A stretch of 64,000 bases of DNA from Escherichia phage WPEC4. Both the position numbers and the translations under genes were made by a program. The stretch is taken from sequence record PV682947.1; one strand, 5' to 3'. Of this stretch, positions 38,823 through 45,909 are shown in pieces (position 1 is the first letter of the stretch; every line of letters begins with the position of its first letter). The notes beneath the pieces are model-generated. The model was given only the letters and a program-made list of their open reading frames with translations. It had not been told where the DNA came from and searched no databases.

Positions 38823-38936
38823 ATGATCACTATCACAACAAAACAAGAAAAAATTATTACAGATATTGCCGCCGTTGCCGCTATTGCTATTATAGGTACC
38901 TACTATGACACCGCGCGACCTTCCTCCTTACATGAA
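38823..38936 (+). pseudogene. 5' portion of a small membrane-protein gene (MITF-start family) interrupted by the repeat array
   Basis: MITITTKQEKIITDIAAVAAIAIIGTYYDTARPSSLHE then runs into array unit A; array units G then H together spell the probable continuation ...HEIAAVASVGVLFYVGKRYLSPMINKLT. Confidence 0.45.
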
Positions 38937-41900
38937 ATAAGACTCATCAGCATCGTAGAAAGGAGAGATGCGACTTAAGTCAAGACCTTCTTGTAAGAAC
39001 CAGTTAAAATCTTTATGTTACAGGGTGCACCTTTTAATAAATGGGAAGAGGCTGTAGGAGAAGACCCTAGAATTGAAGAAGAATTTGACGAAAACGACAA
39101 GTCCATTTTTAAAAGCAGCTACTGGTGGTCCGAAGAAGCCTGAAATGAGCGTATTTGCTGCAACAACAGATGGAAATTTTAACTGGTTCTTACAAGAAGG
39201 TCTTGACTTAAGTCGCATCTCTCCTTTCTACGATGCTGATGAGTCTTATTTTTTATGAATCTCCCCTAAATACTTTTCTAAGATTTTACGACCCTCGTCG
39301 ATAAGGGCTTGTTCTGTAGTAATTTCCGTTCCTTCCTCCTCAAATTATTAACGAAACCGCATGACTAAATCTTGGTTCAGATATAACCTCTGCTACAGTC
39401 ACATAGTTTTATGAATCTCCCCTAAATACTTTTCTAAGATTTTACGACCCTCGTCGATAAGGGCTTGTTCTGTAGTAATTTCTATTCCTTCCTCCTCAAA
39501 TTATTAACGAAACCGCATGACTAAATCTTGGTTCAGATATAACCTCTGCTACAGTCACATTGTTACAGGGTGCACCTTTTAATAAATGGGAAGAGGCTGT
39601 AGGAGAAGACCCTAGAATTGAAGAAGAATTTGACGAAAATTTTAACTGGTTCTTACAAGAAGGTCTTGACTTAAGTCGCATCTCTCCTTTCTACGATGCT
39701 GATGAGTCTTATTTATGTTACAGGGTGCACCTTTTAATAAATGGGAAGAGGCTGTAGGAGAAGACCCTAGAATTGAAGAAGAATTTGACAAAGATTTTAA
39801 CTGGTTCTTACAAGAAGGTCTTGACTTAAGTCGCATCTCTCCTTTCTACGATGCTGATGAGTCTTATCTGTTGTTGCAGCAAATACGCTCATTTCAGGCT
39901 TCTTCGGACCACCAGTAGCTGCTTTTAAAAATGGACTTGTCATTCTTCATTCTCCTCTTCTGCATTTCTTATATATGGTGAAACACCGTACTCTTTAGCT
40001 ACTTTAACCCAATCGTCCCGCATCTGTTGTTGCAGCAAATACGCTCATTTCAGGCTTCTTCGGACCACCAGTAGCTGCTTTTAAAAATGGACTTGTTATT
40101 TTTCATTCTCCTCTTCTGCATTTCTTATATATGGTGAAACACCGTACTCTTTAGCTACTTTAACCCAATCGTCCGCAATAAGACTCATCAGCATCGTAGA
40201 AAGGAGAGATGCGACTTAAGTCAAGACCTTCTTGTAAGAACCAGTTAAAATTTGTCAGCTTGTTAATCATTGGTGATAAATAGCGTTTACCAACGTAAAA
40301 CAGCACGCCAACTGATGCAACGGCGGTGATCTCATGTAAGGAGGAAGGTCGCGCGGTGTCATAGTAGGTACCTATAATAGCAATAGCGGCAACGGCGGCA
40401 ATATCCCTCTCCTCTCTTGGGGCTTTGCCCCTCCTCCTTGTTATTTTTAACACCCCTCTCCGAAAGGTTAGGGGCTTTTTTCTTTTTGGATAGTTGGCAA
40501 TCCATGCTTTATAGAAGCGAAGCAATGTTGCACTGCTCAACGGAATATTATTTGTCATTTTTGTCTCCTTCATAATCCTGAATTCTATCTAGCACCCATT
40601 GTATACGATGTTTGTTTTTATGGCAAATATGTTTTTTATGCAGGATAGTTGGCAATCCATGCTTTATAGAAGCGAAGCAATGTTGCACTGCTCAACGGAA
40701 TATTATTTGTCATTTTTGTTTTCCTTCATAATCCTGAATTCTATCTAGCACCCATTGTATACGATGTTTGTTTTTATGGCAAATATGTTTTTTATGTTAG
40801 AAAAATGACAAATAATATTCCGTTGAGCAGTGCAACATTGCTTCGCTTCTATAAAGCATGGATTGCCAACTATCCTGTCTCCTTCATAATCCTGAATTCT
40901 ATCTAGCACCCATTGTATACGATGTTTGTTTTTATGGCAAATATGTTTTTTATGTTCCCTCTCCTCTCTTGGGGCTTTGCCCCTCCTCCTTGTTATTTTT
41001 AACACCCCTCTCCGAAAGGTTAGGGGCTTTTTTATTTTTGTCAGCTTGTTAATCATTGGTGATAAATAGCGTTTACCAACGTAAAACAGCACGCCAACTG
41101 ATGCAACGGCGGTGATTTCATGTAAGGAGGAAGGTCGCGCGGTGTCATAGTAGGTACCTATAATAGCAATAGCGGCAACGGCGGCAATATCGGTGTCAGC
41201 TTGTTAATCATTGGTGATAAATAGCGTTTACCAACGTAAAACAGCACGCCAACTGATGCAACGGCGGTGATGGATAGTTGGCAATCCATGCTTTATAGAA
41301 GCGAAGCAATGTTGCACTGCTCAACGGAATATTATTTGTCATTTTTGTTTCCTTCATAATCCTGAATTCTATCTAGCACCCATTGTATACGATGTTTGTT
41401 TTTATGGCAAATATGTTTTTTATGGTCAGCTTGTTAATCATTGGTGATAAATAGCGTTTACCAACGTAAAACAGCACGCCAACTGATGCAACGGCGGCGA
41501 TTTCATGTAAGGAGGAAGGTCGCGCGGTGTCATAGTAGGTACCTATAATAGCAATAGCGGCAACGGCGGCAATATGATTTCATGTAAGGAGGAAGGTCGC
41601 GCGGTGTCATAGTAGGTACCTATAATAGCAATAGCGGCAACGGCGGCAATATCTGTTGTTACAGGGTGCACCTTTTAATAAATGGGAAGAGGCTGTAGGA
41701 GAAGACCCTAGAATTGAAGAAGAATTTGACGAAGATTTTAACTGGTTCTTACAAGAAGGTCTTGACTTAAGTCGCATCTCTCCTTTCTACGATGCTGATG
41801 AGTCTTATATAAGACTCATCAGCATCGTAGAAAGGAGAGATGCGACTTAAGTCAAGACCTTCTTGTAAGAACCAGTTAAAATTTCCGTCAAATTCTTCTT

Positions 41901-44900: not shown

Positions 44901-45585
44901 TAGAAGCGAAGCAATGTTGCACTGCTCAACGGAATATTATTTGTCATTTTTTTTTCCTTCATAATCCTGAATTCTATCTAGCACCCATTGTATACGATGT
45001 TTGTTTTTATGGCAAATATGTTTTTTATGTTTTAACTACAAAATTGCGCATATTTTATCCTCCTCATATCTGATCTTATCACAAAATGATATACAATTGC
45101 AAGCATGAAAAATTTTAACTACAAAATTGCGCATATTTTATCCTCCTCATATCTGATCTTATCACAAAATGATATACAATTGCAAGCATTAAAAAGTTTT
45201 ATGAATCTCCCCTAAATACTTTTCTAAGATTTTACGACCCTCGTCGATAAGGGCTTGTTCTGTAGTAATTTCCCTGTTGTTGCAGCAAATACGCTCATTT
45301 CAGGCTTCTTCGGACCACCAGTAGCTGCTTTTAAAAATGGACTTGTCATTTTTCATTCTCCTCTTCTGCATTTCTTATATATGGTGAAACACCGTACTCT
45401 TTAGCTACTTTAACCCAATCGTCCGCATCTGTTGTTGCAGCAAATACGCTCATTTCAGGCTTCTTCGGACCACCAGTAGCTGCTTTTAAAAATGGACTTG
45501 TCCATCTGTTGTTGCAGCAAATACGCTCATTTCAGGCTTCTTCGGACCACCAGTAGCTGCTTTTAAAAATGGACTTGTCATTGAA
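38937..45585. repeat. Mosaic array of roughly 85 units of ~74-78 bp (about 12 sequence types, both orientations), each copied from a gene-boundary sequence
   Basis: Unit order starts A+ 38937-39010, D+ 39016-39089, E- 39096-39169, A- 39176-39249, F+, M2+, F+, M2+, D+, A-, D+, A-, E+, C+, E+, C+, A+, H-, G- ...; unit types whose source is in this window match 7937-8081, 867-940, 1173-1248, 38863-38936 and 45586-45660. Confidence 0.85.
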
Positions 45586-45909
45586 ATTACTACAGAACAA
45601 GCCCTTATCGACGAGGGTCGTAAAATCTTAGAAAAGTATTTAGGGGAGATTCATAAAACCCCTGGCTATTTGGGTTGGAGAATTGTTGAAGCTGTAGATT
45701 TCCTTCCTCGTAACAGTAAAAACGTCGAAATGCGATCTCTTTTCTTATTAGTAAAGGTGGATGGGGATACGCCTTTTAAAGATGCCGCAGAACATATTGA
45801 AAAAGTTGAAGAGAAAGCTTATGCAGAATTTGCCGATCTTGTTTTAGAACAAGAGATTGAAGGAAAGGTGAATATTTTTATTTTCTTAGATTTTGAGGAG
45901 GATAAGTGA
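45586..45909 (+). CDS. hypothetical protein, 5' end apparently truncated by the array
   Basis: Open frame ...EITTEQALIDEGRKILEKYLGEIHKTPGYLGWRIVEAV... continuous from the array edge with no ATG and no RBS; first 75 bp equal the inverse of unit F. Confidence 0.35.
   Translation: MTTEQALIDEGRKILEKYLGEIHKTPGYLGWRIVEAVDFLPRNSKNVEMRSLFLLVKVDGDTPFKDAAEHIEKVEEKAYAEFADLVLEQEIEGKVNIFIFLDFEEDK

Follow-up and report, generated by a model that had tools for sequence, protein, structure and literature searches.

In the record of Escherichia phage WPEC4 (PV682947.1), a long array of short repeated units stands between two genes, both of which appear to be broken at the array edge. The question raised by this locus is whether the array is part of the phage or was created on the way to the record. 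The window (the whole stretch of DNA analyzed, 64,000 nucleotides) belongs to a phAPEC8-like coliphage of the genus Phapecoctavirus, and the flanks of the array are 99.4–100% identical to such phages. The evidence presented here indicates that the array and the gene breaks are not a real feature and that their cause is computational.

Two Genes Broken at the Array Edges

The features at and within the array are the following.

38823 to 38935, plus strand: 5' part of a small membrane-protein gene, codons 1–37 and two bases of codon 38 (phrog_30003 family, homolog of tuntematon gp031)
38936 to 45582, 41 edges forward and 17 reverse: 58 short de Bruijn graph edges with untrimmed overlaps, as delimited by tiling with a simulated 78-mer graph
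43953 to 44103, plus strand: one of the four haplotype edges of site S10|2, carrying the true junction of the membrane-protein gene (…SSLHEIAAVASVGVLFYVGKRYLSPMINKLT)
45583 to 45909, plus strand: homolog of gp223 / phAPEC8_0087 (phrog_15398) without a start codon, formed by the first bases of the next large edge

The open reading frame that begins with the ATG at 38823 encodes MITITTKQEKIITDIAAVAAIAIIGTYYDTARPSSLHEI and beyond 38935 runs into unrelated sequence (...RLISIVERRDAT*). Homologs stop matching after 38935, in agreement with the original prediction that the gene loses its continuation at 38936, and the gene is cut where a contig stops, at the S10|2 variable block. The sequence expected to follow, [A/T]AVASVGVLFYVGKRYLSPMINKLT, was likewise found where it had been placed, within the array, in four allelic versions (e.g., at 43953–44103). 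When the gene is reconstructed, its product matches phrog_30003 from end to end (profile positions 2–68 of 68); the full-length tuntematon gp031 has 68 amino acids.

At the right edge, the frame 45583–45909 is identical to tuntematon gp223 across 108 residues, the full-length protein having 109, and the reconstructed homolog matches phrog_15398 over positions 1–109 of 109. An ATT occupies 45580–45582 in place of the ATG of the homologs, and no ribosome-binding site was found upstream of 45583; this gene was thus rightly described as lacking both signals. Its true ATG falls inside the variable block of site S9|1, and the intact junction GGAGGAAGGAATGGAAATT, with the ribosome-binding site and the ATG, is carried by the edge at 1019–1172. 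A Pfam search returned no match for either reconstructed protein. That the two proteins might naturally end or start at the breaks, a condition that had been set against the original prediction, is not the case, as homologs and profile matches are full length.

Organization of the Array

Apart from one 41-bp pair, repeats within the window are confined to 863–1250, 7941–8095, and 38859–45659. The array itself (6647 bp, about 6.6 kb) is composed of 12 unit families with invariant cores of 71–76 nt, each present in 5–13 copies. Core identity is 100% across all copies of each family, the variation lying wholly between cores, and this repeat structure is far beyond chance. The families fall into six native pairs (U9|U1, U5|U3, U7|U4, U10|U2, U6|U11, and U12|U8rc), the centers of which contain two or three varying positions inside 2–7 nt, and the array edges derive from the six corresponding sites, namely S9|1, S5|3, S7|4, S10|2, S6|11, and S12|8. 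Twenty-seven of these edges are haplotype-specific (unit pairs, 149–155 nt) and 31 are braid edges (single units, 78–83 nt). The array contains no long open reading frames, an Rfam search of the region gave zero matches, inspection of the borders by eye disclosed no motif common to the six sites (nuclease, methylase, or nick site), and no recombinase, reverse transcriptase or RNA family was found in or beside it.

The 78-Nucleotide Rule and Tiling by Graph Edges

The lengths of the units follow a simple rule. In 6/6 native pairs the left core plus the variable block measures 78 nt, as does the variable block plus the right core, and the rule is true for variable blocks of 2, 3, 4, 5, 5, and 7 nt; the two core starts of each pair likewise lie 78 nt apart. 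Seventy-eight nucleotides is the length expected of a unitig built from all 78-mers that span the whole variable block, and a native pair is accordingly a haplotype-specific edge of a de Bruijn graph with (k+1)-mer edges and k = 77. For reads of at most 150 nt, the default k values of SPAdes go no higher than 77. On one side a single unit includes some of the variable block, and on the other it extends by 1–4 bases into the native outer flank; these flank lengths agree with the amounts predicted by the graph and give single units the look of short braid edges.

The rule was examined further by simulation. A compacted de Bruijn graph with 78-mer edges, as in SPAdes at k = 77, was constructed for the six sites out of their cores, native flanks of a few bases and the haplotypes observed in the window (S9|1, n = 3; S5|3, n = 7; S7|4, n = 5; S10|2, n = 4; S6|11, n = 6; S12|8, n = 4), and its internal unitigs were used as tiles. 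The graph consisted of 60 internal unitigs, 58 of which tile 38936–45582 exactly (6647/6647 bp, zero leftover bases). All 58 tiles are distinct and used once each, and with the two unitigs located outside the array, at 941–1018 and 1019–1172, all of the predicted unitigs (60/60) are found once in the window. With edge sizes of 74–77 and 79–82 the longest contiguous stretch that could be tiled was at most 154 bp.

As the haplotype lists were taken from the window's own pairs, the presence of the pairs is not independent evidence; what the simulation contributes independently is the short edges, the exactness of the lengths, the completeness of the tiling and the use of each edge only once. The simulation itself generated the 31 short edges, the pair lengths of 153, 154, and 155 nt and the single use of each edge, none of which had been given as input, and the odd pair lengths (153–155 nt) arise because haplotypes are missing. 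Two variants of the input were discarded. A graph with all allele combinations stalled at 39404, the TG haplotype of S9|1 being absent from the window, and restriction to the observed haplotypes removed this stall. Treating GTTT at S6|11 as an indel haplotype stalled the tiling at 41350, where GTTT is in fact formed by two adjoining short edges, and dropping it gave the full tiling. Central alleles occur once each (7/8 possible alleles at S5|3, 4/4 at S10|2, 4/4 at S12|8, and 6/6 at S6|11), which is improbable under a copying process and expected of a list of graph edges. The array sequence thus originates from an assembly graph.

Large Blocks and Their Order in Related Phages

The remainder of the window is made up of larger blocks, which were compared with the complete genome of tuntematon.

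Up to 940, minus strand: large block ending at core U11 (site S6|11) at 866–940; positions 1–646 align with tuntematon 4904 to 4259, reversed
941 to 1172, no strand assigned: two short S9|1 edges, the 78-mer 941–1018 and the haplotype edge 1019–1172, which are the remaining simulated unitigs
1173 to 8018, minus strand: large edge with PhoH, lysozyme, glutaredoxin, rmlC/rmlD and other genes; tuntematon 129770 to 121047, reversed
8019 to 38935, no strand assigned: large edge (contig) from the inner end of core U4 to the inner end of core U2; tuntematon 42527 to 11644, reversed
45583 to at least 64000, forward: large edge; tuntematon 129770 to 148085

All six visible termini of the large blocks (940, 1173, 8018, 8019, 38935, and 45583) adjoin a variable block, and relative to tuntematon the blocks are shuffled and inverted. 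The true upstream genes of the gene at 45583 sit at 1173–8018 in inverted orientation. Five of the six native pairs map once each in tuntematon, at dispersed positions, and S6|11 has a weak partial match only, near 4.2 kb. About 118 kb separates the two "interrupted" genes in that genome (at about 11.6 kb and 129.8 kb). Since they are not neighbors in the phage, nothing was inserted between them and no region between them was replaced. The original prediction had proposed that the array had been inserted into an intergenic or gene region or had taken its place, or else that these two genes were natural sources from which units were sampled. Insertion and replacement must be abandoned and so must sampling as a biological process, and what stands is that the array holds copies of both genes, together with copies of four other sites of the same genome.

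Similar Arrays in Sibling Records

The unique sequence of the window is 100% identical to that of three further records, WPEC1 (PV659873), WPEC2 (PV691511), and WPEC6 (PV763039), which come from a single submitter and describe phages from hospital wastewater in Thailand with E. coli EC3.18 as host. None of them is collinear with the whole window, which is therefore a fourth, sibling assembly; the large blocks are 100% identical in the sibling records and their order is different. The arrays of WPEC1 contain many of the unitigs found in the window, again placed end to end. In that record the membrane-protein gene is fused to another edge (…SSLHECDCSRGYI*), additional tangles occur at other genome positions, and a run of spurious small "hypothetical protein" calls extends over the pasted edges. 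A literature search on WPEC1 yielded nothing relevant.

The S5|3 pair, the one pair tested in this way, is single-copy in 106/106 other matching phage records and reaches 18–19 copies only in WPEC1, WPEC2, and WPEC6; the count predicted by the graph is 19 (17 short edges and two contig ends). The WPEC records measure 155–161 kb vs. about 145–152 kb for most relatives. Two apparent occurrences outside this set were rejected. DIJ07P1, considered as a second array-bearing genome, carries no more than two of the sites, each in the usual single copy and separated by 2.5 kb, and matches to a Campylobacter phage, considered as a sign of a cross-genus element, belong to the phapecoctavirus-like record B15 under another name.

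Proposed Origin of the Array

Almost certainly, the "complete genome" is the product of a short-read assembly graph with k = 77 whose edges or contigs were all strung together, unordered and with their overlaps kept. The presence in the reads of several alleles in many combinations at six short sites (2–7 nt) would have produced a braided graph with three kinds of edges: large edges ending exactly at a variable block; one edge per haplotype, with a length of 156 minus v (v being the block length); and short edges of 78–83 nt covering part of the block. Pasting these edges in arbitrary order and orientation, with the 77-nt overlaps retained, would create the appearance of an array of ~77-bp units, and the same pasting would make the genes that sit on variable sites look truncated. 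The assembler was presumably SPAdes or a program of that type, and the concatenation was probably a manual or scripted step.

The edges of the array resemble the bubble and braid edges of SPAdes-type graphs in several respects: haplotype edges measure 2(k+1) minus v and braid edges k plus the gap, large edges stop at a branching point, and each edge is present once in arbitrary orientation. They differ in that such edges are usually separate tiny contigs that are discarded, whereas here they were joined into one genome record. A further likeness is to the fragmented assemblies of deeply sequenced phages, which break at sites of recurrent variants; very deep coverage is reported to introduce spurious branches into de Bruijn assemblies of phage genomes and to break them up (PMC5923482).

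Alternative Explanations

Two other origins were weighed against concatenation of graph edges, and both are very improbable. The first is that the array is real phage DNA, in which recombination, insertion or sampling copied ~77-bp pieces of six loci and replaced the sequence between two genes. It would account for units that are perfect copies of phage sequence, for the position of the array between two broken genes and for the existence of three GenBank records with similar arrays. Such DNA would not be expected, however, to obey the 78-mer length rule at 6/6 sites, to be completely tiled by predicted edges used once each with failure at the other values of K tested, or to show zero core divergence in any copy. 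Moreover, the six sites share no motif, the two genes are ~118 kb apart in relatives, the sibling records are permutations of the same blocks, and neither a recombinase nor a reverse transcriptase nor an RNA family accompanies the array. A phage capsid of this kind normally holds about 150 kb, which makes an extra 5–11 kb of DNA implausible.

The second, to which an equally small probability is assigned, is that short DNA pieces such as amplicons or synthetic degenerate oligonucleotides, ~77 and ~155 bp long, were ligated in vitro into concatemers during library preparation and then assembled. Random orientation of the units is what ligation would give, and the sense-strand centers RRARAT, AYR, GGARAVA, and ATKAAAAAK do resemble designed degenerate positions. 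Ligation would nevertheless lead to repeated and missing units and not to each predicted edge once, the ends of fragments would not follow a 78-nt k-mer arithmetic that includes the variable block, and fragments would not be expected to have outer extensions that vary with the variable positions covered; in addition, the records give the phages as wastewater isolates.

Known systems that generate arrays or local variation offer superficial parallels. A CRISPR array is also a long run of short phage-derived units, but the ~77-nt units here have both orientations and stem from the genome in which they lie, a phage assembly, and the candidate was rejected as there is no constant separating repeat, no cas genes and no Rfam match. 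Shufflons (Rci/sfx of plasmid R64) likewise present segments in both orientations, with a block order that varies between sibling records; invertible segments were dismissed as the borders have no recombination site in common, lack an adjacent recombinase gene and are set by k-mer arithmetic. Diversity-generating retroelements likewise show localized changes of a few nucleotides in repeats that are identical elsewhere, yet the array has no pair of template and variable repeats, the changes are not adenine-specific and six unrelated sites are involved; the annotation of the complete genome of the related phage tuntematon includes no reverse transcriptase. Insertion of a mobile element would require a contiguous locus to be interrupted, and it fails because ~118 kb separates the two flanks in the reference. 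Neither the 78-mer arithmetic nor the single use of all 60 edges would follow from any of these alternatives.

Alleles at the Variable Sites

Concatenation of graph edges leaves the alleles themselves to be considered, as the reads must have held many allele combinations at the six sites. At S5|3, six other phapecoctaviruses have CTCC, and the WPEC alleles differ from it by C-to-T changes at the three C positions; 7/8 combinations are present in the window and the eighth occurs in WPEC1. Natural alleles found elsewhere are CATTC at S7|4, CGATC at S10|2, CTC at S6|11 (in DIJ07P1), and CA at S9|1, the last belonging to the start codon (ATG) of the gp223 homolog. When IMG/VR was scanned for natural alleles at two of the sites, only one contig was obtained for each. 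The changes are mostly C-to-T and A-to-G, mainly C-to-T when compared with the allele of other phapecoctaviruses, and the variable positions affect two start codons, a ribosome-binding site, a terminator/promoter junction and two coding positions.

It is unlikely that the multi-allelic sites represent a real and reproducible hypervariability in the phage population. Points in favor of such hypervariability are the places of the variable positions, the predominance of C-to-T changes, the presence of nearly every combination and the recurrence of the alleles in at least one sibling assembly, WPEC1. If it were real, a targeted mutational process or strong diversifying selection at translation-initiation signals would be implied, and the array would remain an artifact. 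The heterogeneity of the reads may instead derive from recurrent sequencing error at very deep coverage.

Implications

Neither the array nor the two "interrupted" genes reveal new biology, and the value of the finding concerns data hygiene. Pasted graph edges are present in at least three public "complete genome" records (WPEC1, WPEC2, and WPEC6) in addition to the source of the window, and in the affected WPEC records the order of the blocks is scrambled and the length inflated by about 5–11 kb. The spurious protein calls of WPEC1 can contaminate protein databases and comparative analyses. The 78-mer length rule together with the unitig-tiling test provides a general and quick way to recognize such artifacts elsewhere.

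Artefact traces elsewhere in the window

The array of short assembly-graph edges pasted end to end is accompanied by further traces of the same artefact, which occur at 863-1250 and at 8018/8019. The relevant features are as follows.

940: end of a contig, followed by two short edges at 941-1172
8018/8019: direct butt joint of two large contigs, at which core U5 adjoins core U4 (both invariant unit families of the array)

Because two large contigs were butt-joined at 8018/8019, a chimeric reading frame spans this position on the minus strand.

Repeats of other kinds are also found outside the array. 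An exact direct repeat of 41 bp (GGCATAATATTTACCACGTAGGGCGGCAATGGTGCCGCTCA) lies among small early genes, its copies (34102-34142 and 35629-35669) being spaced by 1.5 kb, and is unrelated to the array. Tandem Repeats Finder reported an imperfect short tandem repeat at 3630-3674 (21 bp x 2.1, 84% matches).

Alleles at the variable blocks

Within the pairs of cores, examples of the intervening variable blocks are:

39327-39328
39635-39638
39941-39945
40327-40331
40563-40565
43042-43048

Compared with the allele of other phapecoctaviruses, the alleles at these blocks are predominantly C-to-T, with some A-to-G, one C-to-G and two A/C differences, and almost every combination of them is present. 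Variation coincides with the start codon (ATG) of the gp223 homolog and with the place where a SprT-like stop overlaps a TelA-like start; the other variable positions lie in a ribosome-binding site, at the junction between a terminator and a promoter, and at two positions within coding sequence.

Related public records

Pasted graph edges like those of the window also occur in the records of WPEC1 (PV659873), WPEC2 (PV691511) and WPEC6 (PV763039), in which one site is present at 18-19 places and the order of blocks differs from record to record. Additional WPEC1 edges derive from further sites, near 8.5, 23.1, 89.4, 99.9 and 109.0 kb of the reference phage tuntematon; over the WPEC1 pasted stretches examined, small "hypothetical protein" CDSs are annotated in series.

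Separately, MG065650 (Campylobacter phage B15) matches the Escherichia phapecoctavirus of the window at 96-97% across tens of kb; its host label looks doubtful.

Rhamnose-pathway genes

Relative to tuntematon and phAPEC8, about 2 kb is absent at 7795-7944, corresponding in those phages to the genes for dTDP-glucose 4,6-dehydratase and glucose-1-phosphate thymidylyltransferase. Of the rhamnose-pathway genes, those for the epimerase and the reductase are retained in the lineage of the window, and the WPEC1 annotation shows the same loss and the same retention.
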